Notes: generated from the letters alone by a model not told the origin. A DNA stretch of 41,023 bases from a virus (IMGVR_UViG_2690316062_000001:1-41023), one strand, 5' to 3'; numbered from the stretch's first letter, positions 20,804 through 40,213 are shown. Translations and numbers: made by a program.

Positions 20804-21162
20804 TCATCTCCCAGTTCAGTGATGGTCAGCTCCAGCTTTCCACCTTTGGTAACGGGCATCTTCATAACGCGGTAATCAACGACCTGAGCATCATCCAGCC
20901 AGAAACCTGCTTTGGTGAGTGCGTCAAAAGCGGCCTTTTGTAGATTATCCAGGTCACGGCGACGGCGATCCGGCATGTGACACTCAATGCGGATTTTCAC
21001 TGGCATAGCCAGGCCGATATCCAGCATTGCGTTTTTAATGATTTGAGCGACGTTATCGCGGTATGCCTGTCCCTCTGCGCTGACGTGCGTGCGCCCGCGA
21101 TTATGGCGGTAATAGCGATTATTGCTCGGAGGCCAGGGTAATGTGATGCTGTAGGTATTCAC
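20800..21162 (-). CDS. rusA: Holliday junction resolvase RusA
   Basis: 120-aa [40 protein letters not shown]..., recalled as near-identical to DLP12 RusA. Confidence 0.9.
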
Positions 21163-21449
21163 GCCTTAATAACCCCCTCTTTCAGCCAGATAACCTGTGT
21201 TCTCGCCATACCTTCCAGCGCGCATTCTTTTGCATATGCTGCATCGACAAAATGTGTGCGGCGGTCGATTTCGTCGTGGCAGGCAGAACATGCAATGGTG
21301 GCAATCAGGTCTGGCGGTTTGATACCGGTACCGCACAATCCAGCCAGCCGGATATGTGCCAGTACAGACGTTTCAGGGTTGCCATTACATACGCCAGGGA
21401 TTCTTACCTGGCATTCCCGACCACGCGCTGCTTTTCTCAAATCAGCCAT
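21159..21449 (-). CDS. ybcO: YbcO-like nin-region protein (DUF1364, putative nuclease)
   Basis: Start at [14 protein letters not shown] (ATG overlapping ninE stop); Cys-rich 96-aa protein. Confidence 0.65.
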
Positions 21450-21612
21450 GACTCCTCCTTGCTGCCAGTCGCAACCATTTTTTATCAACCAGGCTGGCGG
21501 TATATCCGAGCAGTGTTGGTATTTCGGAAGGCTTCAGCTCAGGTTTACGCTTACGACGATTTGGTACTCTGTAAATGTGCCCGTTCATGACACGAATAAG
21601 CGGTGTAGCCAT
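21442..21612 (-). CDS. ninE: NinE-like protein
   Basis: 56-aa [64 protein letters not shown] overlap with ybcN stop. Confidence 0.65.
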   Translation of the reverse strand: MATPLIRVMNGHIYRVPNRRKRKPELKPSEIPTLLGYTASLVDKKWLRLAARRSHG

Positions 21613-22067
21613 TACGCCTCCTGCTTGTCGCGCAGCAGCTGGAACTCGCAGCTCGGCGGAATAGTCAGGTGGCAGCCAATATTCATCGCCCAGGCTTCAA
21701 CCTTACACAGGAAGACATACATCTCTCCGGTATCAAGATCGGAGGTATGGCGTAACGACTGAATAGTGGTGATTTCACCGGTTACGACATCAACCAGGTC
21801 TTTGGTTTCATAACCGAGGTATGTGTGTTTGAGAGCATCTTTTACCCATGCTGCAGTAGCGAACGATTTCCCCCTGCTTATGAGGTATTCACTGATTTCG
21901 CTGTACCACATGTGGCTAAGTGCATTCTGGGAAAGACTGCGTCTCTCGCGCCACGGTTTAAGCACCATGCGAAAGCATTTGCCGTCCTCCAGATAAGGCT
22001 GGATCTGCTGACCGATAGCGGTGAAGTTACCGCGATGCAGTTTGATGCCATCTTGTGGTAGGTTCAC
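21612..22067 (-). CDS. ybcN: YbcN-like nin-region protein
   Basis: 151-aa [42 protein letters not shown]..., matches recalled DLP12 YbcN. Confidence 0.7.
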
Positions 22068-22514
22068 GCTTCACCTCCACAGAGGTCAGACGCTGGATGC
22101 AAAAAAACGCAGGTGCATTTCTGCATCTGTGAAGGGAGAAGAGAATTTGGATTGTGTGTGCGCATAAACGTCCCCGTTTAGCGCAGAAGTCACCGAAGTT
22201 GTTCAGGCTCCGGTGATACAATTATGGCGAATTGATTATTCATAATCAAACAAGATAAGGTCTCAAACTTCATGCAAGCCAAGATTTATTTCTGACAGAA
22301 TCATACAAAGAAGCTATTGGTCAGAATCTACTCGGACTGTAAAACATACACATAACCTTAAGCTCTCACTTTAAGCATTGTTGAAATAATACCCGTCAAG
22401 TACAACCTTAACCACGACTGGGATATTTCCCTAGCTACCACGAGTTGTACGGCTATTAAACTGTCGTTAAATTCAGTAAGAGAATTTCATCCGATAAGTC
22501 AAGGCATGTAAAAC

Positions 22515-23558
22515 ATGAAAATTAACAAGATATTATCATCTGCAACACTATTGTATGGTATGTCAATGGCCATGTCGGTCGGGAGTTGTGCAACACCTGT
22601 CCAGACTAATCTTCCTGGTTACACCCCGGGTGCAGATATCATTAGTGTTTCACCGACCAGAAACCAGGTCGATCTCATTGGTGATGTTGTTTATTCCCAG
22701 ATAAAAGGAACTCGTTCTGTCAGACAGCTTCACATGTCAGTTCTTGTCCCACGAACAAATGATTTAAAACCAGCCATTATTTATTATCCCGGCGGCGGAT
22801 TCATGTCTTCTGAACATGACAAATTTATTGAAATGAGAATGGCTCTGGCTGAAGCTGGTTTTGTTGTGGCCGCTGTAGAATACAGAACAATTCCTGATAC
22901 ATTTCCAGCACCAGTTGAGGATGGGAAAGCTGCAATACGTTACTTGAGATAACATGCCAGCGATTATGGGATTGATCCTCAAAGAATCGGAGTTCTGGGT
23001 GACTCTGCCGGTGGATGGCTTGCCCAGATGATGGGAACTACAAATGGTGACAAAACCTTTGATAAAGGTGACTTTCTTCAGCAATCAGCAGATGTTCAGG
23101 CAGTTGCCACACTTTATGGGATTTCTGACTTGTTGAATATTGGCGAGGGGTTCCCTGAATCTGTGCAGGAGGTTCATCGATCTCCTGCCGTAACCGAAGC
23201 CTTAATGATCAATGGCCCTGCATTCAGAAGTTTTGCGGGAGCCCCCATAACAGCGTCAAAAGAAAAAGCGCTAAACGCCAGTCCAATCGGACATATGAAA
23301 GGAGTAAAACCCCCATTTCTTATTATGCATGGTAGCAAAGACACTCTGGTTTCACCTGAGCAAAGCGCCAAACTATTCAGGATGTTGAAGAAGAACGGCG
23401 ATAACGCTGAGTACGTTCTGGTAGAAGGGGCTGAGCATGGCGATAATACATGGTATCAGCCAATTATTATAAACAGAGTTGTTGAGTGGTTTACTAAAAA
23501 CCTGGGAACCCCAATAAAAACCGCTACCCAACAACAAAAAACAAACGCTGACCTGTAA
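22515..23558 (+). pseudogene. Alpha/beta-hydrolase esterase/lipase (GDSAG type) interrupted by in-frame TAA
   Basis: ORFs 22515-22952 and 23028-23558 are in the same frame; TAA at 22950-22952; the YYPGGGF oxyanion motif is upstream and the GDSAGG nucleophile elbow lies between the stop and the next Met. Confidence 0.7.
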
Positions 23559-23616
23559 AAAGCAGCCCACACTTATGCGGGCTAACCTATTTCACTCGAT
23601 TCAAAAGAAATTATTT

Positions 23617-23952
23617 TTAATGTGGTGTGCTTCGTGAAAATAAATTAATAACCAACACACCGGCACAAATCAACATCATGCCTATAATAGCTGGCAGGTC
23701 CAGCCGTTGGCCGAAAAATCCCCATGATAGTAAGCTAATCAGGACAATACCGACTCCTGACCAGATAGCATAAGCAATCCCTGTAGGAATATAAGCCAGC
23801 GTCTGAGCTAATAACCAGAATGATGCACAATAACAAATAATTGTACCAACAGATGGCCATAACCGTGTAAAACCTTCTGAAAACTTCATTAAGGTTGTAC
23901 CAATGACCTCTGCAAGTATTGCACCACCAAGATAAATATAAGGATTCATAGC
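23617..23952 (-). CDS. emrE: SMR-family multidrug efflux transporter EmrE
   Basis: MNPYIYLGGAILAEVIGTTLMKFSEGFTRLWPSVGTIICYCASFWLLAQTLAYIPTGIAYAIWSGVGIVLISLLSWGFFGQRLD... matches recalled E. coli EmrE. Confidence 0.9.
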   Translation of the reverse strand, partial: AMNPYIYLGGAILAEVIGTTLMKFSEGFTRLWPSVGTIICYCASFWLLAQTLAYIPTGIAYAIWSGVGIVLISLLSWGFFGQRLDLPAIIGMMLICAGVLVINLFSRSTPH

Positions 23953-24395
23953 ATATTCTTTCCTGTTCAAACTGGAGAGAATTGTACTACAGTTTGAACT
24001 CAACTCATCTGTTTCATCATTGTGTACCCATTGATGTTCTTTTATATACCCTCAATACCCGTTTCATCGCGGCACTCTGGCGACACTCCTTAAAAATCAG
24101 GTTCGTGCTCACCTTTCCTGCCCGTTCTCCCCGGGTAGCAAACCGATAATACACCGTTCGCCAGTCCTTACTATCAATGACCAAGATTCCTGCCCATATC
24201 ATTTTAGCCGCAGCCTAATTTATGCTGGTTATTGTTACGTGTGAATTCAGTTAGCTGCATAAATTGTCACGGAAGTGATACATCGATATTATCGAGAAAT
24301 TCACTCGAATTTATACGATTGAAACTGCACTTATATCTGTTTTAAATACTCCGAACACTCTTTACAACAACTGTGTGAAAATGGAGATAATTAAA

Positions 24396-25124
24396 ATGAA
24401 AAAGGGTTTGGCTATTTCATTCATTGCCGCCGTGTGTGCATTTGCTGCAAATGCGAGTGCTGAGGAAAGTAAAAACGGGTTTTATCTAACCGGTAAAGCC
24501 GGTGCCTCTGTGGCGTCGTTATCAGACCAGCGTTTTCAGTATGATGAAGGCGATTGGTCAACTGGATTTAAGGGCAGCAACAACCATGACACGGCGTTTA
24601 GTGGTGGTATCGCAGCGGGTTATGACTTTTACCCACAGTTCAGTATTCCTGTTCGTACGGAGCTTGAATTTTATGCCCGCGGAAAGGCTGATACAGAATA
24701 CAATCTTTTTAAGGACGACTGGGTGCGAGCTGACATGAAGAATGAGGTGTCAGTCAACAGCCTGATGTTGAACGCGTACTATGACTTCCGGAACGACAGC
24801 GCATTCACCCCTTGGGTGTCCGCAGGGATTGGTTATGCAAGAATTCATCAGAAATCAACGGGTGTCATCACCTTCGATAATGGATACGGATACAGTGACC
24901 GCGCATCTGATTCCCGTTCAGATTCTTCTGATAACTTCGCATGGAGCCTTGGTGCTGGCGTCCGCTATGACGTAACTCCAGATGTCAGTCTGGACATCAG
25001 TTATCGCTACCTGGATGCAGGTGATGCCAATGTGACTTATACCGATGATTGGGGCGATAAATATAAATCAGATGTTGATGTAAAAAGTCATGACATTATG
25101 CTTGGTGTAACCTATAACTTCTGA
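24396..25124 (+). CDS. Outer-membrane beta-barrel protein (Ail/Lom/PagC-like)
   Basis: Start chosen at the second Met with GGAGA 9 nt upstream; signal peptide MKKGLAISFIAAVCAFAANASA; alternating aromatic/hydrophilic strands; C-terminal ...GVTYNF. Confidence 0.7.
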   Translation: MKKGLAISFIAAVCAFAANASAEESKNGFYLTGKAGASVASLSDQRFQYDEGDWSTGFKGSNNHDTAFSGGIAAGYDFYPQFSIPVRTELEFYARGKADTEYNLFKDDWVRADMKNEVSVNSLMLNAYYDFRNDSAFTPWVSAGIGYARIHQKSTGVITFDNGYGYSDRASDSRSDSSDNFAWSLGAGVRYDVTPDVSLDISYRYLDAGDANVTYTDDWGDKYKSDVDVKSHDIMLGVTYNF

Positions 25125-25172
25125 ACAAACCTTTTCTAAATTATAATTACACGCTTACTGTGATTAACTAAA

Positions 25173-25206
25173 GCCCCCTGCAATATATTGCTATGGGGGG
25201 CTCTTT
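25173..25206 (+). terminator. Candidate terminator after OMP gene
   Basis: GCCCCC...GGGGGC stem enclosing a GCAATATATTGC palindrome, then TCTTT. Confidence 0.4.
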
Positions 25207-25605
25207 CGCTCATCGTGCAGGATGATTTTTGCCTAATTCCGTTATCACCACAATAATATTCATCGACATTTTCTTAATGGACACCTGAAAATATTTTATC
25301 GGGTAATATTCCGAGATTTTATTGTTTTTATTCTTTTCCGTTATCTCTGATAATATTGTAAGCATCCGGTGAACTCGCCTTGCGTGGACTAGCCAGTCGT
25401 TGTAGCACTGACGCCGCTGCGTTGAGTTCTTTTTTTCGCCATCAGCTCTCCTGCTTCTGTAGATAAAGAAGAGACAGAAGAATGGCGTTGATCACAACGA
25501 CCAGTAATGCGAATTCATCGGCCCCTCACACTGTTACCGCGGCAACGTCCTGCGCACAGAAGCTCTTATGCGTCCCCAGGTAATAAATAATTGCCTCTTT
25601 GCCCG

Positions 25606-27889: not shown

Positions 27890-28117
27890 TTAGGCGGCAG
27901 AATTACTCGCGTTAAACAATGGTGCGAGGTCGGGACGAATATCTGCTGGTTTAATCTTTCCACCAGTGGCTGAGACAATTTTCATTACATAGCGGGCATC
28001 AATTCCGCCACCGTGTAGCCAACGCCAAACTGTGGGTTGGGCTACACCGCATAGATCTGCCAGTCGTTTTTGACTGCCTGTAATACTGATTGCGAGTTGA
28101 ATGGTTTGATTTGTCAT
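27890..28117 (-). CDS. Cro/YdaS-like HTH repressor
   Basis: Start at ATG preceded by AGGA; HTH QKRLADLCGVAQPTVWRWL; divergent from cI. Confidence 0.6.
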   Translation of the reverse strand: MTNQTIQLAISITGSQKRLADLCGVAQPTVWRWLHGGGIDARYVMKIVSATGGKIKPADIRPDLAPLFNASNSAA

Positions 28118-28151
28118 TATCAATTCCTATTGGTATTGCAATGAATGAATA

Positions 28152-28180
28152 ATAGCAATGCGTATTAATCCAAGCAATAG
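28152..28180 (-). promoter_or_regulatory. PR-like promoter for the cro/replication operon
   Basis: Minus strand TTGCTT-17 nt-TATTAT upstream of the cro-like gene; overlaps AGCAATAGCAA operator-like motif. Confidence 0.45.
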
Positions 28181-28191
28181 CAAAACGTGTT

Positions 28192-28220
28192 TTGACCATC
28201 AATACGCAAGCGTATAAATT
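28192..28220 (+). promoter_or_regulatory. PRM-like promoter for cI (near-leaderless)
   Basis: TTGACC then 15-17 nt then TATAAA/TAAATT; expected start lies within a few nt of the cI ATG at 28228. Confidence 0.4.
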
Positions 28221-28227
28221 AAAACTT

Positions 28228-28920
28228 ATGAAAAAAGAAACTCTTGCTGATCGCTTAAATCTAGCGATGGAACAATCTGGAATGTCTCAAGGCGCTCTTG
28301 CAAAGGCGTCTGGCGTAGCTCAACCCACAATCTGGAGACTGACAAGCGGCAACGCGCGCGGCTCAACAAAAATTGTTGAAATAGCTAATGCATTGGGTGT
28401 TCGAACAGAATGGCTCTCTTCAGGCATAGGCCCGATGAGAAATGACGGTCAACAATCAGGGAAGCCTGCTGTCAGCCATTCCAAATACTTCAAAATTGAC
28501 GTTCTTGATATAGAAGTCAGTGCCGGGCCGGGTGTAATCAACCGTGAGTTTGTAGAAGTTCTACGCTCGGTTGAATACTCGTTTGACGATGCTCGTCACA
28601 TGTTCGATGGCAGGAAGGCGGAAAATATCCGCATCATTAACGTGCGTGGTGACAGCATGTCAGGAACGATCGAACCAGGTGATCTGCTGTTCGTTGATAT
28701 CACGGTTAAATCTTTCGACGGTGATGGTATCTATGCGTTTCTGTATGACGACACCGCCCATGTAAAACGCCTGCAAATGATGAAGGATAAGCTGCTGGTT
28801 ATCTCTGATAACAAGAGCTACTCACCGTGGGACCCGATCGAGAAAGACGAGATGAACCGCGTGTTCATCTTCGGGAAAGTCATCGGGAGCATGCCGCAGA
28901 CATATAGAAAGCATGGGTAG
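28228..28920 (+). CDS. CI-type repressor (HTH plus S24 LexA-like autopeptidase)
   Basis: N-terminal HTH QGALAKASGVAQPTIWRL; C-terminal GDSMSGTIEPGDLLFVD (Ser) and HVKRL (Lys) catalytic dyad. Confidence 0.85.
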   Translation: MKKETLADRLNLAMEQSGMSQGALAKASGVAQPTIWRLTSGNARGSTKIVEIANALGVRTEWLSSGIGPMRNDGQQSGKPAVSHSKYFKIDVLDIEVSAGPGVINREFVEVLRSVEYSFDDARHMFDGRKAENIRIINVRGDSMSGTIEPGDLLFVDITVKSFDGDGIYAFLYDDTAHVKRLQMMKDKLLVISDNKSYSPWDPIEKDEMNRVFIFGKVIGSMPQTYRKHG

Positions 28921-29004
28921 AAATCAGAACAAAATTATGCACTTCGCTTTTCAGCTTACTGTAGTAAGGCAATAAATTAGGCTTGACGTTAGCTATCAGG
29001 TGCA

Positions 29005-29019
29005 CAACAATAATTGTTG
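29005..29019. promoter_or_regulatory. Perfect 15-bp palindrome CAACAATAATTGTTG upstream of cassette
   Basis: Read directly; lies 31 nt upstream of the 29050 ATG, after a TTGACG -35-like hexamer at 28983-28988. Confidence 0.4.
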
Positions 29020-29049
29020 AATAATAGGTTTTTTTAACTAGGTGATAAC

Positions 29050-30189
29050 ATGGCAGCGGTTGAATTTCAATTGTCTAGGAAGATGATTGATTGGATAGCA
29101 AATTCTCAAGGAGTTTCTATCGAAACTCTTGCTGACCAAGTCATGCCCAAAAAGATTAATAAATTTCTTAACGGAGTGGTAAGTAAATCCGCAGCAGAAA
29201 AACTGGCAAAAATTGGAGGAATCCCTTTCGGTTTTTTATTTCTTGAAACGCCACCAACTCCAGCCAAACCCAAGATCCCTGACTTAAGGCAAGCTATAAA
29301 TAGCCGTGAGTTAGGAAAAGATTTTTTTGATGTTTACTATGATATAGAATATAAACTTGAGTGGTACAAAGACTATTTAAGAGAAAATGGTAATGATGAT
29401 CCACTCGATTTTATTGGTAAATTTAAATTTAATAGAAAATTAAATTATAAGGTTGTTGCTACAGACATAGCAAACACAATACATTTTGATATACAAAAAG
29501 AGATAAAAAATGTCACTTTTGAGAGCTATTTTTCTAAAGTGGCAAAATTAATAGAAGACACTGGCGTATTAGTTTTCAAGAATGGTGTTGTGGGTAATAA
29601 TAATAAAAGAAAACTTGACACGCGAGAGTTTCGTGGTTTCTGTATATCTGATAGCGTTGCTCCGATCATTTTTGTAAATAGCTCGGACGCGTTATCTGCG
29701 CAGGTATTTACATTATTTCATGAGGTGGCTCATCTTTGGCTTGGAGTCGATGGAGTCTCTGGGTGGGACACAGAAAAAAACATAGAATCTTTTTGTAATA
29801 AAGTTGCTGCTGAAATCTTAATGCCTGATAATCTCTTCAAATCTTTCTGGCTTAATGCATCCAGCGATAATAATTATTATCGAGTAAAAGAGGTTTCTAA
29901 GTTATTTAAGGTTAGTGATTTCGCTTGTGCAATCAAAGCGTTACAATTAGATTTGATAGAAAGAAACACTTTGGAGATAATTAAAGATCAAGCTTACAAT
30001 AAGCCCAAAAAAGAATCTAATGGTGGTTCTTTCTTTAACACATTACCTGTTCGTAACAGTCCAAAACTTACGAATATAATAATTTCCAAAGCAATGTCTC
30101 AACAATTACCATTAAGGGAAGCAGGCGTACTGCTAAATGTAAAAGCAGATACAGTTGTTGAATTTTATAAAAAACGAGAATCTCTATGA
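29050..30189 (+). CDS. HTH domain fused to ImmA/IrrE-family zinc metallopeptidase (COG2856)
   Basis: AGGTGA RBS; N-terminal HTH-like segment; HEVAHLWLG (HExxH) followed by VAAEILMP, the ImmA/IrrE signature; strongly AT-rich. Confidence 0.8.
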   Translation: MAAVEFQLSRKMIDWIANSQGVSIETLADQVMPKKINKFLNGVVSKSAAEKLAKIGGIPFGFLFLETPPTPAKPKIPDLRQAINSRELGKDFFDVYYDIEYKLEWYKDYLRENGNDDPLDFIGKFKFNRKLNYKVVATDIANTIHFDIQKEIKNVTFESYFSKVAKLIEDTGVLVFKNGVVGNNNKRKLDTREFRGFCISDSVAPIIFVNSSDALSAQVFTLFHEVAHLWLGVDGVSGWDTEKNIESFCNKVAAEILMPDNLFKSFWLNASSDNNYYRVKEVSKLFKVSDFACAIKALQLDLIERNTLEIIKDQAYNKPKKESNGGSFFNTLPVRNSPKLTNIIISKAMSQQLPLREAGVLLNVKADTVVEFYKKRESL

Positions 30190-30698
30190 TTCATAATGGA
30201 AAATTCTTAATTGATAGTAATGTCTTCATAGAGGCAAAAAACTTTGCATATAACTTCAATTATTGCAAAATATTTTGGGATTTTCTTCTCGCTTTACACA
30301 TTAATGGTCTGATTTATAGCATTAATGCTGTAAAAAAAGAACTATGTGCAAAAGATGATCCATTGTGTAAATGGATTAAAGAAGAGTTACCATCATCATT
30401 CTTCGAAGATGAGCATAGTTCAATAGAAAATTATGCAAAGTTAATAAATTGGTCAACTAAATTAGATGTTACCGAAAAGGCAAAGTTTGATTTTGCAAGC
30501 CATGAAAAAGCAGATGCTTTTTTAATAGCCCATGCGATGACACATGGATATACTATTATTACCCATGAGAAACCATCCGGTGGCAAACCTAAAAAAAGAA
30601 TAATGATCCCGGATGCTGCTGCTTCTCACGGCGTTAAGACATTAACACTATATGAATTTCTTCCAAGATACGCTAGTCATAATTTTTCTTTGAAATAA
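30186..30698 (+). CDS. PIN-like nuclease domain protein (DUF4411 family)
   Basis: ATGA start/stop overlap with upstream gene; N-terminal FLIDSNVFIEAKN PIN-like strand with Asp; further acidic residues spaced as in PIN folds; ...IAHAMTHGYTIITHE. Confidence 0.7.
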   Translation: MIHNGKFLIDSNVFIEAKNFAYNFNYCKIFWDFLLALHINGLIYSINAVKKELCAKDDPLCKWIKEELPSSFFEDEHSSIENYAKLINWSTKLDVTEKAKFDFASHEKADAFLIAHAMTHGYTIITHEKPSGGKPKKRIMIPDAAASHGVKTLTLYEFLPRYASHNFSLK

Positions 30699-30703
30699 AA
30701 CGT

Positions 30704-30730
30704 CCCGGCCACCGTGCCGGGTTTTCTTTT
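30704..30730 (+). terminator. Rho-independent terminator ending the cI-cassette operon
   Basis: CCCGGC-caccgt-GCCGGG followed by TTTTCTTTT, 6 nt after the stop at 30698. Confidence 0.7.
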
Positions 30731-30860
30731 GCCTCCCCTCATCACACACACCGTTCAAAAAACCACCACAACCCCGCTTCAGTTATCGCTATGCGATGCA
30801 AGTCACAAAATTAATTCTTTTTGCTATCAAATATTTAATATCAAAACACATCTAGCAATA

Positions 30861-30889
30861 GCAATAAGTATTGATATCATCAATAGCAA
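30861..30889 (+). promoter_or_regulatory. PL-like promoter with operator-like repeats
   Basis: TTGATA-17 nt-TATTAT; spacer and flank carry AGCAATAGCAATA / CAATAGCAATAGC, the same motif as in the cro-cI intergenic region. Confidence 0.45.
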
Positions 30890-31176
30890 TAGCTATTATC
30901 ACCATGTCGCAACAACACAACGATACGGCAATCACCTGATTCACCGTTGCGATGACCGCTTAGATCCGCAGCTTGAATTTCAGCAGGCTCCGGGGAGTGC
31001 GAGGGGTGAAGCGGACGCGTGAACGTCGGTGTGACCAGCTGAAATCAACTCAACACTTCATACCTTAGTCGCTTCAACGAGGCGGCTTAGTTATGACAAC
31101 CGGCGGCCATCCACCGCCTGAATACGCGCAGAAGTCTCTATATGTTCAGCAGCCCAGCTTACGGGCAGGAGTTTTT

Positions 31177-31383
31177 ATGGTTCATCAACATTACGGAACG
31201 CAGACCGTTAATCGCGGCGCGGTCATGCCAGGAATGCTGGTCAAACACAAAGATGGTACCTGGACTGCATCAGCTAATTTACGCGGACGGCTTTATCTGC
31301 ATCGCGGCATCGAGCGCACTTATACCCGTGATTTGCTCGTGGAAGTTTTTCTCGACGGACGCGGTAACGGCCTGAATCACTAA
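31177..31383 (+). CDS. Hypothetical early protein (kil/cIII position)
   Basis: 68-codon ORF starting at ATG with CAGGAG 7 nt upstream (MVHQHYGTQTVNRGAV...); the longer 31093 start lacks an RBS. Confidence 0.35.
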   Translation: MVHQHYGTQTVNRGAVMPGMLVKHKDGTWTASANLRGRLYLHRGIERTYTRDLLVEVFLDGRGNGLNH

Positions 31384-31459
31384 CCCCCCTTTCCTGTTTT
31401 CCTAATCAGCCTGGCATTTCGCGGGCGCTATTTTCACAGCCATTTTCAGGAGTTCAGCC

Positions 31460-31756
31460 ATGAACGCTTATTACATTCAGGATCGTCTTGAGGCTCAGAG
31501 CTGGGCGCGTCACTACCAGCAGATCGCCCGTGAAGAGAAAGAGGCAGAACTGGCAGACGACATGGAAAAAGGCCTACCCCAGCATTTGTTTGAATCGCTC
31601 TGCATCGATCATTTACAACGCTGCGGGGCCAGCAAAAAAGCCATTACCCGTGCATTTGATGACGATGTTGAGTTTCAGGAGCGCATGGCAGAACACATCC
31701 GGTACATGGTTGAAACCATTGCTCACCATCAGGTTGATATTGATTCAGAGGTATAA
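31460..31756 (+). CDS. gam: Gam, RecBCD inhibitor (short GamS-length form)
   Basis: 98-aa [63 protein letters not shown]..., recalled as near-identical to lambda GamS. Confidence 0.9.
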
Positions 31757-31761
31757 AACGG

Positions 31762-32547
31762 ATGAGTACAGCACTCGCAACGCTGGCTGGGAAGCTGGCT
31801 GAACGTGTCGGCATGGATTCTGTCGACCCACAGGAACTGATCACCACTCTTCGCCAGACGGCATTTAAAGGTGATGCCAGCGATGCGCAGTTCATCGCAT
31901 TGTTGATCGTCGCCAACCAGTACGGCCTTAATCCGTGGACGAAAGAAATTTACGCCTTCCCTGATAAGCAGAACGGCATCGTTCCGGTGGTGGGCGTTGA
32001 TGGCTGGTCCCGCATCATCAATGAAAACCAGCAGTTTGATGGTATGGACTTTGAGCAGGACAATGAATCCTGCACATGCCGGATTTACCGCAAGGACCGC
32101 AATCATCCGATCTGCGTTACCGAGTGGATGGATGAATGCCGCCGCGAACCATTCAAAACCCGCGAAGGCAGAGAAATCACCGGACCGTGGCAGTCGCATC
32201 CCAAACGGATGTTACGTCATAAAGCCATGATTCAGTGTGCCCGTCTGGCCTTCGGATTTGCTGGTATCTATGACAAGGATGAAGCCGAGCGCATTGTCGA
32301 AAATACCGCATACACTGCAGAACGTCAGCCGGAACGCGACATCACTCCGGTTAACGATGAAACCATGCAGGAGATTAACACTCTGCTGATCGCCCTGGAT
32401 AAAACATGGGATGACGACTTATTGCCGCTCTGTTCCCAGATATTTCGCCGCGACATTCGCGCATCGTCAGAACTGACACAGGCCGAAGCAGTGAAAGCTC
32501 TTGGATTCCTGAAACAGAAAGCCACTGAGCAGAAGGTGGCAGCATGA
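31762..32547 (+). CDS. bet: Bet (Red-beta) single-strand annealing protein
   Basis: 261-aa [69 protein letters not shown]..., matches recalled lambda Bet. Confidence 0.95.
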
Positions 32548-33224
32548 CACCGGACATTATCCTGCAGCGTACCGGGATCGACGTAAGAGCTGTCGAACAG
32601 GGGGATGATGCATGGCACAAATTACGGCTCGGCGTCATCACCGCTTCAGAAGTTCACAACGTGATAGCAAAGCCCCGCTCAGGAAAGAAGTGGCCTGACA
32701 TGAAAATGTCCTACTTCCACACCCTGCTGGCTGAGGTTTGCACCGGTGTGGCTCCGGAAGTTAATGCTAAGGCGCTGGCATGGGGAAAACAGTACGAGAA
32801 CGACGCCAGAACCCTGTTTGAGTTCACTTCCGGCGTGAATGTTATTGAATCCCCGATCATCTATCGCGACGAAAGTATGCGTACCGCCTGCTCTCCCGAT
32901 GGTTTATGCAGTGACGGCAATGGCCTTGAGCTGAAATGCCCGTTTACCTCCCGGGATTTCATGAAGTTCCGGCTCGGTGGTTTCGAGGCCATAAAGTCGG
33001 CTTACATGGCCCAGGTGCAGTACAGCATGTGGGTGACACGAAAAGATGCCTGGTACTTTGCCAACTATGACCCGCGTATGAAGCGTGAAGGACTGCATTA
33101 TGTCGTGGTTGAGCGGGATGAAAAGTACATGGCGAGTTTTGACGAGATGGTGCCGGAGTTCATCGAAAAAATGGACGAGGCACTGGCTGAAATTGGTTTT
33201 GTATTTGGGGAGCAATGGCGATGA
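32544..33224 (+). CDS. exo: Exo (lambda exonuclease)
   Basis: 226-aa [47 protein letters not shown]..., matches recalled lambda Exo; ATGA overlap with bet. Confidence 0.95.
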
Positions 33225-33403
33225 CGCATCCTCACGATAATATCCGCGTAGGCACGATCACTTTCGTCTACTCCGTTACGAAGCGAGGCTGGGTATTTCC
33301 CGGCCTTTCTGTTATCCGAAATCCCCTGAAAGCACAGCGGCTGGCTGAGGAGATAAATAATAAACGGGGAGCTGTATGCACAAAGCTTCTCCCGTTGAGT
33401 TAA
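33215..33403 (+). CDS. Hypothetical protein
   Basis: 62-aa ORF overlapping the exo stop; no recognisable motif. Confidence 0.3.
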
Positions 33404-33567
33404 GAACGAGTATCGAGATGGCACATAGCCTCGCTCAAATTGGAGTCAGGTTTGTGCCAATACCAGTAGAAACAGACGAAGAATTTCATACGTTAGCCGC
33501 ATCCCTTTCACAAAAGCTGGAAATGATGGTGGCGAAAGCAGAAGCAGATGAGAGAGACCAGGTATGA
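33376..33567 (+). CDS. Hypothetical protein (lambda b-region orf63-like)
   Basis: 63-aa acidic [26 protein letters not shown]... Confidence 0.45.
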   Translation: MHKASPVELRTSIEMAHSLAQIGVRFVPIPVETDEEFHTLAASLSQKLEMMVAKAEADERDQV

Positions 33568-33647
33568 CAACCACTGAATGCATTTTTCTGGCAGCGGGCT
33601 TCATATTCTGTGTGCTTATGCTTGCCGACATGGGGCTTGTTCAATGA
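33564..33647 (+). CDS. Candidate small hydrophobic peptide (27 aa)
   Basis: MTTTECIFLAAGFIFCVLMLADMGLVQ; ATGA-type overlaps at both ends (with 33376-33567 and 33644-33859). Confidence 0.25.
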   Translation: MTTTECIFLAAGFIFCVLMLADMGLVQ

Positions 33648-33859
33648 CACCTCAGCAAGAAAACGCCCTTCGCAGCATTGCCCGTCAGGCTAATTCTGAA
33701 ATCAAAAAAGCCAGACAGCAGTTTCCGGATAATAACGTCGATGACATTTGCCGTAGCGTACTAAAGAAGCACCGCGAAACGGTAATGCTGATGGGATTCA
33801 CACCGACTCATTTAAGCCTGGCGATCGGCATGTTGAACGGCGTCTTTAAGGAACGGTGA
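33644..33859 (+). CDS. Hypothetical protein
   Basis: Start at internal Met MTPQQENALRSIARQ... of the 33578 ORF, overlapping the small-peptide stop. Confidence 0.4.
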   Translation: MTPQQENALRSIARQANSEIKKARQQFPDNNVDDICRSVLKKHRETVMLMGFTPTHLSLAIGMLNGVFKER

Positions 33860-33957
33860 ACATGAAAAGCAAAATCATCAGGGAGCTACAGGCTCCTTTT
33901 TTATTATTCGCATTTACCCTCAAGCGTATTAACCAACAATTCAGGGATTAATGAAAG

Positions 33958-34176
33958 ATGGCAGACATCATTGATTCAGCATCAGAAATCGAAGAATTAC
34001 AGCGCAATACAGCAATAAAAATGCGTCGTCTGAACTACCAGACTGTATCCGCAACTCATTGTTGTGAGTGTGGCGATCCGATAGATGAGCGAAGACGCCT
34101 GGCTGTTCAGGGTTGTCGGACTTGTGCGAGTTGCCAGGAGGAGATCGAACTTAAGAACAAACAATGGGGACTGTGA
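33958..34176 (+). CDS. TraR/DksA-family C4 zinc-finger protein
   Basis: 72-aa ORF with CxxC...CxxC (CCECGDPIDERRRLAVQGCRTCASC). Confidence 0.75.
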   Translation: MADIIDSASEIEELQRNTAIKMRRLNYQTVSATHCCECGDPIDERRRLAVQGCRTCASCQEEIELKNKQWGL

Positions 34177-34223
34177 TGGCCTCAAAGCAGCAAATTTCAA
34201 CATCGTCCAACTGAGGTGTAAAA

Positions 34224-34502
34224 ATGTTCAGAATCATTTTTCCTAACACCTGGTACGTCGACCACCACGGCACTCCCTGCAAAATCCTGCGTTCTACCCA
34301 CAACAAAGTTCACTACATCCGAAAAGGCAGAACATGTATCGCCAGCATGTTCCGCTTTAATCATGACTTTGAACCTGTGAATAAAGCTGATGCAGATCGG
34401 ATAGCAGAAGAGATCGAAACGGCAGAACACATTAAGAAGTTACGTGACATGCGTTCAAAAAGCAGAGGTAACCATGGAATCATACAGCCTCACACTCGAT
34501 GA
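34224..34502 (+). CDS. Hypothetical protein
   Basis: 92-aa ORF upstream of xis; basic. Confidence 0.35.
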   Translation: MFRIIFPNTWYVDHHGTPCKILRSTHNKVHYIRKGRTCIASMFRFNHDFEPVNKADADRIAEEIETAEHIKKLRDMRSKSRGNHGIIQPHTR

Positions 34503-34824
34503 GGCCTGTCAGTTTCTTAAGATATCCAGACCAACCGCCACCAACTGGATACGAACAGGCCGCCTACAGGCAACACGCAAAGACCCCACTAAACTAAAAT
34601 CTCCTTACCTCACAACACGACAAGCCTGCATTGCGGCGCTTCAGTCTCCGCTGCATACTGTCCAGGTGAGCGCGGGTGATGGCATAACAGAGGAAAGAAA
34701 ATGTCACTCTTCCGCAGAGGTGAAATATGGTACGCCAGTTTCACATTGCCGAACGGTAAAAGATTTAAACAGTCTCTTGGAACAAAGGACAAAAGGCAGG
34801 CGACAGAGCTCCATGACAAGCTAA
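34474..34824 (+). CDS. xis: Excisionase (P22 Xis-like)
   Basis: 116-aa product from [32 protein letters not shown] (HTH); overlaps the int start by about 120 nt. Confidence 0.65.
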
Positions 34825-35864
34825 AGGCTGAAGCATGGCGGGTCAGCAAACTTGGTGAAATACCTGATATGACGTTCGAGGAGGCGTGTATCAGGTGGCT
34901 CGAAGAGAAAGCACATAAAAAATCACTGGACGATGACAAAAGCCGGATCGGATTCTGGCTTCAACATTTCGCAGGAATGCAACTAAGAGACATTACTGAA
35001 TCAAAAATTTATTCAGCAATGCAGAAAATGACGAACCGGCGTCATGAGGAAAACTGGAAACTCAGGGCAGAAGCATGCAGAAAAAAAGGGAAACCAGTTC
35101 CAGAATACACGCCAAAACCAGCGTCCGTTGCAACGAAGGCTACGCATCTTTCATTTATAAAGGCCCTGCTAAGAGCCGCAGAGCGTGAATGGAAAATGCT
35201 GGATAAGGCACCAATTATTAAAGTGCCTCAACCAAAGAATAAACGGATCCGCTGGCTGGAGCCCCATGAAGCACAAAGGCTGATTGATGAATGTCCGGAG
35301 CCATTAAAGTCTGTTGTTGAATTTGCACTGGCAACAGGCTTAAGACGCTCGAACATCATCAACCTTGAATGGCAACAAATAGATATGCAGCGCCGGGTGG
35401 CATGGATAAACCCGGAAGAGAGTAAATCAAACCGCGCAATTGGCGTTGCGCTGAATGATACTGCATGTCGCGTATTGAAAAAACAAATCGGGAATCATCA
35501 CCGTTGGGTATTTGTGTACAAGGAAAGCTGTACCAAACCAGACGGAACGAAAGCGCCAACAGTAAGGAAGATGCGGTATGACGCAAACACAGCCTGGAAA
35601 GCAGCGCTGAGACGGGCTGGTATTGATGATTTCAGATTTCACGACTTGAGACACACCTGGGCAAGTTGGCTGGTTCAAGCCGGAGTCCCGTTGTCAGTGT
35701 TACAGGAAATGGGAGGCTGGGAGTCTATCGAAATGGTTCGTCGATATGCTCACCTTGCACCTAATCACCTTACCGAACACGCACGGCAAATAGACTCGAT
35801 CCTGAACCCATCGGTCCCAAATTCGTCCCAGTCAAAAAATAAGGAAGGTACTAATGATGTGTAA
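34701..35864 (+). CDS. int: Tyrosine integrase (P22/DLP12 Int-like)
   Basis: 387-aa [45 protein letters not shown]...; catalytic-domain motifs ...[10 protein letters not shown]...RYAHL; stop 16 bp from the att core. Confidence 0.9.
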
Positions 35865-35880
35865 CTTATTGATTTAAATG

Positions 35881-35928
35881 GTGCCGATAATAGGAGTCGA
35901 ACCTACGACCTTCGCATTACGAATGCGA
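35881..35928 (-). other. att core: 48-bp copy of the 3' end of tRNA-Thr(CGU) (thrW-type), not a complete tRNA
   Basis: Reverse complement GCATTCGTAATGCGAAGGTCGTAGGTTCGACTCCTATTATCGGCACC corresponds to anticodon loop (CGT), T-arm and acceptor 3' strand of tRNA-Thr; flanking sequence on the 5' side does not continue the tRNA. Confidence 0.7.
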
Positions 35929-36012
35929 AGTTTTTATATTTTAACTGCTTGAACAACCATCAGAAATCACAAATTTATCATTTTAAATCATAATATTAAA
36001 ACAAAAAACCTG

Positions 36013-36038
36013 TTGATGTAAATTGATGAGTGTTGATG
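36013..36038. repeat. Three TTGATG repeats phased at 10 bp upstream of second integrase
   Basis: TTGATG at 36013, 36023, 36033; similar GTTGAT / ATCAAC copies at 37416-37447 after the gene. Confidence 0.4.
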
Positions 36039-36110
36039 TTTATCCTTTCAATTTACTTACACCAGCCGTTACATTACTGTAAACCGTAATCCCCAACAGG
36101 AACCCTAAAA

Positions 36111-37430
36111 ATGGCGCTTTCAAGACAAAAACTAACCTTCGAACGAATTCGAAGATTTACTTTACCTGAAGGGAAAAACCAAGTTTTCCTTTGGGATACG
36201 GACGTAACAAGCTTGGCATGTCGAGCAACTCGTGGAGCAAAAGCCTTTGTATTCCAAAGCCTGTATGCGGGAAAAACCCTTCGCATGACCATTGGCAACA
36301 TTAACGATTGGAGGATTGATGATGCGAGGGCCGAAGCCAGGCGACTGCAAACATTAATCGATACTGGGATAGATCCGCGTATAGCTAAGGCGGAAAAAAT
36401 TGCTGAAGCGGAATCACAGCAGGCTGAATCTCGTAAAACGAAGGCAACCTTTTCAAGCGCTTGGGAAGATTATCTTGATGAATTGAGAACCGGAATCAGC
36501 GCAAAAACTAAACGCCCCTACTCTGCACGCTACATTGCCGATCACGTTAACTTGTCCAGTCGTGGAGGCGAAAGTAAAAAAAGAGGCCGGGGCCCAACCT
36601 CACCTGGGCCACTGGCTAGCCTGCTCGACCGACCATTATCAGAACTAACACCAGAGAACATTGCCGAATGGCTAAGTACAGAGAGACAAAATCGGCCTAC
36701 CGTCACTGCTCATGCCTACCGTCTGTTGCGTGCATTCATCAAATGGGCTAATTACCAGAAAAAATATCAGGGAATAATCCATGGCGATCTTGCACAAGAT
36801 CATAACGTGAGAAAAATGGTTCCAATATCAGCGAGCAAAGCGGGAGATTGCTTACAAAAAGAACAGCTCAAAAGCTGGTTCAGTGCCGTGCGTAGCCTCA
36901 ATAATCCCATTGCATCAGCCTATCTCCAAGTGCTTTTGCTCACCGGTGCACGGCGTGAAGAAATTTCCTCACTTCGCTGGTCTGACATAGATTTCAAATG
37001 GTCAAGCATGCGAATTAAAGACAAGATCGAAGGCGAGCGAATTATCCCCCTCACTCCCTATGTTTCTGACTTGTTACGCTCACTGATGGAGATCCCCAAT
37101 CGTGGTACAAACGAGGAGAATTGGGTTTTCAGAAGTAACAGCAAAAGTGGCAAAATTATTGAACCGCGTTCAGCACATAATAGAGCATTAACTCGCGCGG
37201 AGTTACCACATATCAGCTTGCACGGATTGCGCCGTAGTTTTGGGACCCTCGCTGAATGGGTCGAAGTACCAACAGGTATTGTTGCGCAGATTATGGGCCA
37301 TAAGCCTAGCGCTCTTGCTGAAAAGCACTATCGCCGCCGTCCATTAGATTTGCTAAGAAAATGGCATGAAAAAGTTGAATTATGGATCTTAGAAGAAGCA
37401 AAAATAAAAAACAACGTTGATAAGCGTTGA
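36111..37430 (+). CDS. Tyrosine integrase of second element (P4-type)
   Basis: 439-aa ORF; C-terminal LHGLRRSFGTLAEW...IMGHKPSALAEKHYRRR catalytic motifs (R, HxxR, Y). Confidence 0.85.
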   Translation: MALSRQKLTFERIRRFTLPEGKNQVFLWDTDVTSLACRATRGAKAFVFQSLYAGKTLRMTIGNINDWRIDDARAEARRLQTLIDTGIDPRIAKAEKIAEAESQQAESRKTKATFSSAWEDYLDELRTGISAKTKRPYSARYIADHVNLSSRGGESKKRGRGPTSPGPLASLLDRPLSELTPENIAEWLSTERQNRPTVTAHAYRLLRAFIKWANYQKKYQGIIHGDLAQDHNVRKMVPISASKAGDCLQKEQLKSWFSAVRSLNNPIASAYLQVLLLTGARREEISSLRWSDIDFKWSSMRIKDKIEGERIIPLTPYVSDLLRSLMEIPNRGTNEENWVFRSNSKSGKIIEPRSAHNRALTRAELPHISLHGLRRSFGTLAEWVEVPTGIVAQIMGHKPSALAEKHYRRRPLDLLRKWHEKVELWILEEAKIKNNVDKR

Positions 37431-37966
37431 TTTTATCAAATATCAACAACTTACATAAAATCACATGTGTTGACAGAAATTTTTTTTCAGTTATCTTTTA
37501 TTACTGCTAACTACATTCACTCACTAAGCAGGAGATTAACTACAGTGACTAACCCAATAACTGTATCAAGAGAAGACCGAAGTGCGGAAATCAGAGCGAG
37601 ATGGGGTTTACATCCGACTAAAAACAAAAGTTCTAATTTTTGGGAAACAACAATTCAGCGTTTTAATAATAGTAGTACTGACCGAATACTACCTCTTTGG
37701 CACCGTGTTTCAAAACTTTTAGTTGCTATTAGGAATGTAGTCAATACTATAACATGCCCTTTTCCACCAAAGGGGAATACTTCCCGCTCACGCCGAAGTT
37801 CAACAACGTCATCAAAAAACTCATCATCATCTTCATCGGATGGTAGTAGTAGCGACCCCGATCCCGATAGAGACCCCATATTCACCCCTTTTCATTTCAT
37901 TCTTTCATCTCTGTTAAAAACAATGATCGTCTTATTTGCCCACATATCAAATGTTGGGGTGATGAA

Positions 37967-38188
37967 ATGAGCGATATCAAACATCAAAAACCCTCTCAGT
38001 CACAACTAATTTCTACCCGCGAGTTAGCTAATATTATTGGCTATGAAGTACAAACTATTCGAGCTTGGCTTTGCAAAGACAAACTGCCTAATGGTTTACC
38101 GCGACCGAAGAAAATTAAAAACCGACATTATTGGTCACGTAAAGACATTGATAGATACCTATTAACCTTCTCAGTATATAGTAACTAA
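37967..38188 (+). CDS. AlpA/excisionase-like HTH DNA-binding protein
   Basis: 73-aa ORF LISTRELANIIGYEVQTIRAWL...; followed by perfect hairpin CCGGCTATTC-taaa-GAATAGCCGG at 38201-38224. Confidence 0.5.
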   Translation: MSDIKHQKPSQSQLISTRELANIIGYEVQTIRAWLCKDKLPNGLPRPKKIKNRHYWSRKDIDRYLLTFSVYSN

Positions 38189-38310
38189 TAGAGGCCTCCC
38201 CCGGCTATTCTAAAGAATAGCCGGGTTAGTTAATACAAACCTTCCATTAACAATGGGGGGAGATTAATACTATTTATCACATCTCACATTAACAAAATTC
38301 AAGGTCACAT

Positions 38311-39075
38311 ATGAAAAAACGCATCACTTTCAGCGTAAACAATAGTTCTACTATTGATGCAATTGACGACTATAGCAATGCAAAAGGATACTCCAGGTCA
38401 GAGGTGATATCATTTTTATTAAACGCCACAGTCCCAGCATTGAATAAAATAACATCGCAATATCATATAGCTCAAACTTTGGAGTCAACATTAGGCTGTA
38501 TTTTTGAAGAGAAGGCCCCGTCAATAGCACGGGGGGAGCCAAAATTAACTTACGAAGAGTTTTTTCATTCCGTCTGGAACACTCACATTCGACACCGGAA
38601 CGAGGTTATCGACCAGAATTTTTATGCACACAAAATATCTCATGATAAGATGGGGAAGAGTGAAAAAAAATTAATTCATGAAAAGCTCACATACATTATA
38701 AAAAGCTTCAATGTAAAAAAAGCAATTTTTATTTACACAGATCGGCGCGTGAACCACAAACATCTAATTGCAGGAGGGTTGTCAAATATCATACTGATAA
38801 AGGAAACAGTTTACGATGGTTGTTTTTTTGATTTGAGCAGCATTGTGATTATGCCAATCTTTGAACTTATTACATTTGGAATTGAAGAGGTATTGAAAAG
38901 AAATAAAATCCACCATAAACAATCATGCTATTGCTGGATACCAATTTATTACACAAATGATCTAGCGGTAATGGTCCCGGTGATTGCCGAAGGCGATACA
39001 CCTCAAAAGGCGATGAAAGGAGGAGATGCCATCATTATTAACCCCTTTAACGGTGAAGTAAACCATACTTTCTGA
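38311..39075 (+). CDS. Ribbon-helix-helix (CopG-like) N-terminus fused to about 200-aa domain of unknown function
   Basis: MKKRITFSVNNSSTIDAIDDYSNAKGYSRSEVISFLL is an RHH-type beta-strand/helix motif; the remainder has no motif I recognise; AT-rich. Confidence 0.5.
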   Translation: MKKRITFSVNNSSTIDAIDDYSNAKGYSRSEVISFLLNATVPALNKITSQYHIAQTLESTLGCIFEEKAPSIARGEPKLTYEEFFHSVWNTHIRHRNEVIDQNFYAHKISHDKMGKSEKKLIHEKLTYIIKSFNVKKAIFIYTDRRVNHKHLIAGGLSNIILIKETVYDGCFFDLSSIVIMPIFELITFGIEEVLKRNKIHHKQSCYCWIPIYYTNDLAVMVPVIAEGDTPQKAMKGGDAIIINPFNGEVNHTF

Positions 39076-39157
39076 TACCAATGTTAAGCATAACCACTTA
39101 GTTGCATACATCTCGACAGTATGGAGTTAGTACCTAATAGCTTGATGAGGGTAAAAG

Positions 39158-39334
39158 ATGCCTACTAACAAAGCAAAATCAAAGAAAATTCTAGGAAGGC
39201 CTGAAGGAAGTAAATATTACCATTTAATTCAGAGTGAGAAGGCTAAGCATTACTCTCAATCCAAGGTGGCAAAGATCTTAGGAATAAGTATTTCCACGGT
39301 AAAAAGACACTGGGATAACGGCATCTTTGGGTGA
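39158..39334 (+). CDS. Small HTH protein (uncertain)
   Basis: 58-codon ORF MPTNKAKSKKILGRPEGSKYYHLIQSEKAKHYSQSKVAKILGISISTVKRHWDNGIFG; below the ORF-track cutoff. Confidence 0.35.
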   Translation: MPTNKAKSKKILGRPEGSKYYHLIQSEKAKHYSQSKVAKILGISISTVKRHWDNGIFG

Positions 39335-39537
39335 TTATAATTGCAGAGTTGCTTTTTAAGTATTTTACTGCATGGGTAATGGGTTGATAACAAGTTTTAT
39401 TGTTGGAAAGGTATTATATAACAGTCATTACTATTAATAGTTAATTAATATAAATAACCACAGACATTCATCTATGTCTTATCATATTACTATATACGGC
39501 TTTAGAAAACCGTAGAACTAACTACAAGGGTATACAT

Positions 39538-40158: not shown

Positions 40159-40213
40159 TTTATTTTTTACAGCAATGGCCTTTCTTATAGATGGAAAGGC
40201 CAGACCTTATATA

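Follow-up and report, generated by a model that had tools for sequence, protein, structure and literature searches.

In the Escherichia coli pyrBI operon, a short leader open reading frame (ORF) runs through a terminator hairpin to the first structural gene, and the sequence of the peptide is unimportant. In phage lambda, the entry to the nin region is occupied by the terminator tR2, which lies between ren and ninB. Two sequence records relate more directly to the locus described here: that of phage 82 (X92588.1), deposited with Mahdi et al. 1996 and with its features marked as putative, and that of the DLP12 prophage of E. coli K-12 with its gene pair ylcH-ybcN (b4588-b0547). Further comparisons are offered by the put RNAs of phage HK022, which are about 70 nt long with long bulged stems and a triplex (PMC9378689), and by the morons of lambdoid phages (Juhala et al. 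2000, as cited in PMC4104026). The locus in question lies in IMGVR_UViG_2690316062_000001:1-41023, a 41,023-nucleotide stretch of viral DNA that was analysed as a whole and is called the window below. The window is a lambdoid prophage with its nin region on the minus strand, reading leftward, and the interval at issue comprises the 447 bp between the divergently oriented ybcN (21612-22067, minus strand) and an esterase ORF that starts at 22515 on the plus strand. This interval is probably the junction of two unrelated modules, namely a control leader of the nin operon and the 5' flank of an esterase moron.

A preliminary description had taken 22068-22514 for an AT-rich, non-coding gap without a convincing ORF between divergent genes. 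The gene coordinates bear out the gap itself, while the rest of that picture holds in part. A 33-codon ORF, ylcH or orf33, is annotated at 22064-22165 on the minus strand, so that it is the remaining 349 bp (22166-22514) that lack an annotated gene. Likewise, the GC content of 0.409 is indeed below that of the window (0.494) and of the neighbouring nin genes (0.499), but this AT-richness is unexceptional, as 16% of all 447-bp segments of the 41-kb sequence are equally or more AT-rich, and it is not uniform, the GC content falling stepwise from 0.49 (22068-22165) through 0.42 (22166-22250) to 0.375 (22251-22514). An annotated micro-ORF, a leader outlined as early as 1996 and a moron flank thus account for the gene-sized 'empty' gap, an outcome that is mostly deflationary. 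The promoter, the inverted repeat and orf33 are known as putative features of the 1996 record, and ylcH is known as a K-12 gene name. What appears to be undescribed is a set of four hairpins backed by covariation, including a terminator-like hairpin inside the ORF and a hairpin that sequesters a Shine-Dalgarno (SD) sequence. The neutral drift of the peptide, the breadth of the distribution and the link to a 3' end mapped by Term-seq likewise appear to be new.

The proposed nin-operon leader

Window positions 22250-19977 align with positions 49-2322 of X92588.1 without gaps and at 95.5% identity, through orf33, orf151, orf56, orf96, rus, orf45 and Q, the last being the 229-codon phage-82-type Q. 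Position 49 is 1 nt before the putative -35 element of the record, and the annotated -35, -10, inverted repeat, ribosome-binding site (RBS), orf33 and orf151 all map one-to-one onto the window, where the order behind the leader is orf33/ylcH, ybcN, ninE, ybcO, rusA, ylcG and Q. The record differs in that it describes neither hairpins 2 to 4 nor an RNA-level function. In K-12 DLP12, the module is 94.6% identical to that of the window, 27 of the 33 residues of the ORF are shared and the stop-start overlap is present. The features of the leader are as follows, with positions in X92588.1 given as record positions.

22232-22249: palindrome TTGATTAT-GA-ATAATCAA, read from alignments, overlapping the -35 element at the left edge of the conserved module
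22244-22249, minus strand: putative -35 element TTGATT, from a consensus scan and the phage 82 annotation (record 50-55)
22221-22226, minus strand: putative -10 element CATAAT after a 17-bp spacer, from the consensus scan and phage 82 (record 73-78), with a predicted start near A22214
22190-22216, minus strand: hairpin 1, a variable stem with a 9-nt loop CCUGAACAA (22199-22207) closed by a G-C pair; labelled in the phage 82 record (82-110, window 22217-22189) as an inverted repeat and 'possible regulator-binding site'
22160-22184, minus strand: hairpin 2, GCGCTAAACG-GGGA-CGTTTATGCGC, with the ylcH start codon (22163-22165) in its 3' arm
22172-22177, minus strand: putative RBS of phage 82 (record 122-127)
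22064-22165, minus strand: ylcH or orf33 (record 134-235), 33 codons, its TGA overlapping the GTG of ybcN (GTGA)
22132-22159, minus strand: C-rich, G-free spacer of 28 nt (11 C, 0 G) between hairpins 2 and 3
22108-22131 and 22101-22107, minus strand: stem-loop of hairpin 3 and its U7 tract, resembling an intrinsic terminator, inside ylcH
22067-22092, minus strand: hairpin 4, holding the ybcN SD sequence GGAGG at 22074-22078 (second putative RBS of phage 82, record 221-225)
21612-22067, minus strand: ybcN or orf151 (record 232-687), of the NinB/Orf family, the first long gene of the operon behind the leader

The leader is found in lambdoid prophages of at least ten enterobacterial genera, among them those of Escherichia, Enterobacter, Klebsiella, Citrobacter and Raoultella, as well as of Phytobacter, Scandinavium, Siccibacter, Pseudocitrobacter and Pseudescherichia. 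A covariance model of hairpins 1-3 (R1), built from ten sequences, showed each locus to contain a single copy and the lambda locus none; its match in the window lies at 22091-22220 on the minus strand (89.4 bits, E = 9e-16). The Rfam 15 covariance models gave no match at E <= 1 in window positions 21000-24500, and no Rfam match on the module in the K-12, phi80, Klebsiella or L028 loci. In phages HK639 and KO-TP1 (loci L008 and L010), the leader precedes a NinB of the lambda Orf type rather than of the YbcN type, which shows that it is not bound to a single NinB subfamily; in HK639, the annotated NinB start lies 7 nt before the end of the leader ORF.

The pairing of hairpins 1-3 was examined in 69 distinct sequences, in which 95.5% of cells are paired as against 81.9% after shuffling; none of 500 shuffles reached the observed value, and sliding the partners lowers the pairing to 23-40%. 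Compensatory changes are present in 27 of the 30 pairs, that is, in nine of ten pairs of hairpin 1, in all 11 of hairpin 2 (97.2% of cells paired) and in seven of nine of hairpin 3 (98.2% paired). The loop CCUGAACAA of hairpin 1 is invariant. Hairpin 2, whose loop holds an SD-like GGGGA, is labelled in the curated phi80 record as no more than 'IR4'. The 10-bp stem of hairpin 3 is interrupted and contains two A.C mismatches that are conserved, and its loop is GAAA. The stability of the stem is moderate, and the stem-loop passes directly into the U tract in the manner of an intrinsic terminator; this architecture, with a U-rich tail, recurs in 27 lineages with folding free energies (dG) of about -8 to -16 kcal/mol; in K-12 the tail is degraded (CAAUUCUUUG, against CGUUUUUUUG in the window). 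The poverty in G of the spacer before it is also seen in other lineages, and the C-rich tract is a possible loading site for Rho when it is untranslated.

Hairpin 4 ends at the first base of the GTG start codon of ybcN (22065-22067) and, in minimum-free-energy (MFE) folds of 21 lineages, is predicted in almost every one, in two or three compensated versions. A second model (R2, alignment A7) gave 97.2% paired cells against 86.6% after shuffling, with compensatory changes in four of nine pairs; because R2 missed most sequences of the window type at default filters, these values refer to 19 distinct sequences and are to be read together with the MFE folds. Hairpins 3 and 4 fold separately in most lineages. 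The stem of hairpin 4 in the window contains two mismatches, and the ybcN SD sequence is there predicted to pair with 22127-22136 instead.

Three enterobacterial lineages (loci L024, L028 and L029) carry two to three tandem copies of hairpin 1, about 150 to 100 nt upstream of ninB, each with a loop of the (C/U)CUGAACAA type, and a further CUGAAC follows hairpin 2. The sequence of hairpin 2 is wholly different in these loci, and the start codon still lies inside it.

The ORF that runs through these structures is annotated as b4588 in K-12, as WP_072093903.1 in RefSeq E. coli genomes and as orf33 in phage 82. It has 31-34 codons in every lineage and begins at an AUG or GUG within hairpin 2, and its stop codon overlaps the ninB start codon in the +1 register in nearly all lineages, despite several independent changes in length. 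Among 77 close relatives, the variable sites of ylcH are spread over the three codon positions as 13/13/11, with a ratio of nonsynonymous to synonymous changes (N/S) of 3.46, whereas the same comparison for ybcN gives 21/11/54 and an N/S of 0.30. Hairpin 3 spans codons 12-21, and compensatory changes in the stems rewrite the peptide, for example from QMQKCTC to PMAKATG. No match to a protein family was found for YlcH in Pfam or NCBIfam, neither regulatory codons nor a conserved peptide were found in ylcH, and the N-terminal half is unconserved. Because the frame is kept and the stop-start overlap is fixed while the amino acids drift neutrally, ylcH is, as judged from these comparisons, a leader ORF whose translation is apparently selected for and whose product is not.

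The -35/-10 pair was found by the consensus scan independently of the phage 82 annotation, as was a terminator-like hairpin in the ORF. Homologous upstream regions were drawn from annotated phages, 22 species-level genomes and 80 IMG/VR contigs; among the 72 distinct ones TTGATT is conserved in 54, CATAAT in 50 and the 17-bp spacer in 65, and lineages that lack TTGATT or CATAAT carry other good -10 elements. The -35, spacer and -10 are thus kept while the sequence further upstream diverges. The -35 element forms one half of a palindrome with the family consensus TTGAT-N8-ATCAA, and in phi80 both of its half-sites have changed in step (TTGATA/TATCAA). The palindrome is widespread without being present everywhere; Klebsiella-type and some other lineages lack its right half. 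The half-sites TTGAT/ATCAA would fit FNR, but the spacing is N8 and not N4, and FNR was rejected for this reason. The RNA of ylcH, listed on its own, is increased by 2.03 log2 in microaerobic growth of E. coli (PMC8910356), which, given the wrong spacing, is only a loose coincidence.

The module boundary and the esterase flank

The preliminary description had suggested that the segment may be the scar of a moron insertion, and such a scar can indeed be placed at 22250/22251. Homology to both K-12 DLP12 and phage 82 breaks exactly at this point, the DLP12 homology ending 32 bp past the ybcM stop codon, and in the 72 upstream contexts similarity ends at one point, just outside the TTGAT of the -35 element. 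Upstream of the leader, DLP12 carries ybcL-ybcM in the same orientation, and phage 82 has, before position 49, the same ybcM 3' flank; the window instead has the divergent esterase cassette (positions 6252-7869 in L001, a related locus with an intact esterase), which is allelic to ybcL-ybcM of K-12 DLP12. The preliminary description named contiguous alignment with related phages as part of what would refute it, and on this point the answer is split: the interval is contiguous in 680 genomes and 8 phage records that have the esterase, but not against relatives that are free of it.

The cassette behaves as morons of lambdoid phages do in that it is optional, alternating with ybcL-ybcM or other genes at a fixed site in relatives, and in that its base composition is distinct, with a GC content of 0.425 in the cassette and 0.375 in the flank compared with 0.499 in the nin genes. 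It differs from them in being oriented against the early operon, and its downstream end has been removed in the window by a deletion. On the evidence of the alignments, the leader marks an apparently very sharp recombination boundary for swaps of cargo genes.

The esterase side of the interval comprises the following features.

22251-22514, plus strand: upstream flank of the esterase cassette, 264 bp, GC content 0.375
22445-22450 and 22468-22473, plus strand: weak promoter candidate read by hand from the sequence, -35 TTGTAC, 17 nt, -10 TAAATT
22515-23558, plus strand: esterase gene, BD-FAE / Abhydrolase_3 (Pfam BD-FAE, E = 3e-44)

The flank occurs only with the esterase. Of 5426 complete E. 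coli genomes, 682 have it, in each case unannotated and with an identity of at least 95%, and it is contiguous with both the esterase and the ybcN leader in 44 of 44 IMG/VR loci. Its RNA fold is no different from that of shuffled sequences (z = -0.56), and its plus strand holds no ORF of at least 25 codons and no promoter at the threshold of the consensus scan. The earlier suggestion that the esterase promoter lies here is therefore plausible but weakly specified, as the best candidate found by hand matches the consensus at three of six positions in TTGTAC and four of six in TAAATT. The flank is most simply the moron's own 5' region, and it presumably carries the promoter and the 5' untranslated region of the esterase gene. 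In the variant of the palindrome that is linked to the esterase, the plus strand at 22241-22246 reads CATAAT, a -10-like sequence directed toward the esterase about 270 nt upstream of its start codon and without a matching -35; that it forms part of a divergent promoter is speculative.

An IMG/VR prophage (L155) contains two leader modules, at 143-272 and 2077-2206. The first copy adjoins the esterase flank and is followed by rha and a gene of 169 amino acids, and the second precedes ybcN, a duplication which suggests a portable leader that also serves as a linker for recombination when cargo is exchanged.

Proposed function and alternative readings

We consider it likely that the module is a cis-acting leader or insulator at the entrance of the nin-Q operon, at the position which tR2 holds in lambda; its promoter activity, termination at hairpin 3, translational coupling and insulator role, and thus its mechanism, are what we infer from the sequence. 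It resembles tR2 in its map position before a gene of the NinB/Orf family at the entry of the nin region, and hairpin 3 is, like tR2, a stem-loop followed by a run of U. However, the two share no sequence similarity, in keeping with the absence of an R1 match from the lambda locus (L015), and lambda has no promoter, leader ORF or extra hairpins at tR2. Moreover, the stem of tR2 is perfect and GC-rich, whereas hairpin 3 has its two conserved mismatches and lies inside an ORF.

The closest functional analogy would be an attenuator of the pyrBI type, with a leader ORF, combined with translational coupling, the defining features of which are present in part. As in that system, a terminator-like hairpin falls within the leader ORF, here ylcH, which ends where the next gene begins. 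Conversely, no conserved regulatory codons and no pause tract sensitive to uridine triphosphate were found in the ylcH leader, and two further hairpins would gate the start sites.

In the proposed scheme, unmodified RNA polymerase, whether from the local promoter or from upstream, would mostly be stopped after hairpin 1 and/or at hairpin 3, and this early stop would keep the nin-Q operon quiet in the prophage; an untranslated C-rich tract may add Rho-dependent termination. In lytic growth, antiterminated polymerase from PR would read through the leader. On the full-length RNA, ribosomes translating ylcH would open hairpin 4 and reinitiate at the overlapping ybcN start, so that ybcN would be translated only when ylcH is translated, and hairpin 2 would throttle initiation at ylcH. 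It would be the act of translating ylcH that matters, and not the peptide.

Published transcript data bear on this scheme. In MG1655, Term-seq identified curated 'orphan' 3' ends at 572349 and 572350 on the plus strand, in two growth conditions and with read counts of about 1,600-1,900 (Adams et al. 2021, PMC7815308, supplements). Their context, ...CATAATTATGTCACCGGAGCCTGAACAACTCCGGTGACTTCTG|CGC, corresponds to window position 22184, which is 6 nt past the stem of hairpin 1. The listing of ylcH RNA as raised in microaerobic growth (PMC8910356) is further evidence of transcription. In addition, expression of rusA in DLP12 is low except where a promoter is provided by an insertion (PMC4118853), a finding that fits a leader which blocks read-through. 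The suggestion in the preliminary description of a small RNA in this region is partly borne out, since the ybcN-proximal 185 bp encode, on the minus strand, a covarying structured RNA with Term-seq ends after hairpin 1; the esterase side does not, and the structured RNA looks like the leader of an mRNA rather than a free-standing small RNA.

Several observations weigh against the proposed leader, or against the junction of which it is part. The Term-seq supplements (PMC7815308) list no K-12 3' end near hairpin 3, an absence qualified by the degenerate U tract of that hairpin in K-12, and the 3' end after hairpin 1 could be due to processing or could belong to transcripts that started upstream in ybcM. 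Hairpin 1 lacks a U tract in many lineages and is therefore not a canonical terminator, and a plain terminator or insulator leaves its invariant loop, and the copies of that loop in three lineages, unexplained. The promoter was marked 'putative' in 1996 and is putative here, and it is hard to see what a constitutive promoter directly before its own terminators would serve. Some sequences also leave another frame open across the G-poor stretch, so that the openness of the ORF is by itself weak evidence of translation; the frame-preserving insertions and deletions and the fixed stop-start overlap are stronger arguments. On the other side of the junction, the consensus-level search gave no promoter for the esterase.

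The alternatives concern what, if anything, the interval produces. One is that the module makes a small RNA which acts in trans or binds a protein, either an RNA of about 31 nt consisting of hairpin 1 or one of about 115 nt ending at the U tract, with the loop CCUGAACAA as seed or protein-binding site and with the downstream ORF and genes secondary. The putative promoter of its own, the 5' hairpin, the terminator-like 3' end, the invariance of the loop while the stem covaries and the discrete K-12 3' end after hairpin 1 would all suit such an RNA, as would the report of ylcH RNA apart from the downstream genes, the two to three hairpin-1 copies in L024, L028 and L029 and the CUGAAC that recurs after hairpin 2 in the phi80-type lineage. 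Yet the element always runs in frame into the start of the following gene, as leaders typically do, each phage genome holds a single copy, phi80 nutL shows no similarity to it and no Rfam family matches; sites complementary to the loop are not in excess in the window (13 with at most one mismatch, 9.9 expected). A small RNA therefore seems unlikely, and it is kept under consideration because the invariant loop and its duplication or triplication are unexplained. The view that YlcH is itself a functional small protein, with the hairpins incidental to coding, draws on its annotation in K-12, RefSeq and phage 82, on the conserved frame and the conserved start with GGGGA five nt upstream, and on a semi-conserved 'SQM..T(C/G)DFLHSA' stretch. 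It is extremely improbable, for the variable sites (13/13/11) and the N/S of 3.46, against 0.30 in ybcN, give no sign of purifying selection, the compensatory changes in the stems alter residues, the U tract and hairpin 4 lie just where the C-terminal part is conserved, and no protein family matches.

At the other extreme, the interval could be functionless AT-rich filler together with the recombination scar left by the esterase insertion. The unexceptional AT-richness accords with this, as does the 264-bp part, which has no significant fold (z = -0.56), no consensus promoter and no annotation in 682 genomes. That same part, however, is at least 95% identical in every occurrence of the esterase and immediately precedes its start codon, and so it must hold at least the translation and transcription signals of the esterase; the ybcN-proximal 185 bp, for their part, are conserved with covariation across about ten genera. 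Filler is accordingly quite improbable, and the cis-acting leader joined to a moron flank is the reading we prefer.

A further and rather doubtful idea, which takes its cue from the covarying stem of hairpin 1, its invariant loop CCUGAACAA, its one to three copies, its place at the 5' terminus and the 3' end in vivo, is that an undescribed riboregulatory system of phages uses hairpin 1 as its recognition element. The hairpin could bind a protein of the host or one encoded in the nin region, for example in autoregulation by the single-stranded-DNA-binding NinB/YbcN, or it could be a put-like, factor-independent modifier of RNA polymerase that gates entry into nin-Q. The HK022 put sites likewise comprise two stem-loops close to a promoter, ahead of terminators in the early operon of a lambdoid phage, and HK639, a put-using phage, carries the leader module in its nin region; the hairpins of the module, in contrast to put, are short and simple. 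When R1 was run with filters off on HK022 28000-40751, the best score was 9 bits (E = 0.6), putL being outside the stretch searched, and a put-like RNA was set aside as an identification.

Other described elements were also considered and rejected. The prophage small RNAs AgvB and AsxR are located downstream of PR' (PMC4104026), and the Pas small RNAs are tied to a sialate esterase near the lysis genes, or to structural genes, and not to the alpha/beta hydrolase found here. A nut-like site does not fit, as boxA and boxB of phi80 nutL differ and the module is single-copy in phi80, and the site of HusR (YnfL) lies upstream of rusA, inside ybcO, and not in this interval.

The leader stands at the entrance to an operon that ends in Q, the late-gene switch, and the late genes of Shiga toxin (Stx) phages include the toxin genes. 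If it is true that the leader insulates or meters transcription into Q, it bears on the silencing of prophages and on the timing of induction; and were hairpin 1 to gate entry in a put-like fashion, it would set the timing of late genes in many enterobacterial lambdoid phages.

The esterase gene and nearby rearrangements

The esterase has a lipoprotein-type signal ending in VGSC. In the window it is a pseudogene, since a GAA to TAA change at 22950 (codon 146) divides it into ORFs of 145 and 176 codons; it differs from the intact 347-amino-acid copy of L001 at four sites, one of which is this stop. Intact copies of 347 amino acids are present in SCU-301 and SE15. When IMG/VR was searched for diverse relatives of the esterase, all that it yielded were copies of 97% identity or more, in the same context.

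Related prophages carry ylcJ and the serine-recombinase gene ybcK between the esterase and emrE; the window lacks both. The deletion junction at 23608-23622 falls in a 15-bp repeat, AAATTATTTTTAATG, found on either side of the missing segment in L001, and three IMG/VR contigs (L123, L124 and L126) have an identical ylcJ-ybcK deletion junction. Relative to L001 and L002, the window also has a 1.29-kb insertion at 24240-25530, which carries a gene for a 249-amino-acid outer-membrane beta-barrel protein (24375-25124; Pfam OMP_b-brl) and interrupts a ren-like gene about 10 bp from the site of the K-12 IS3 in renD.

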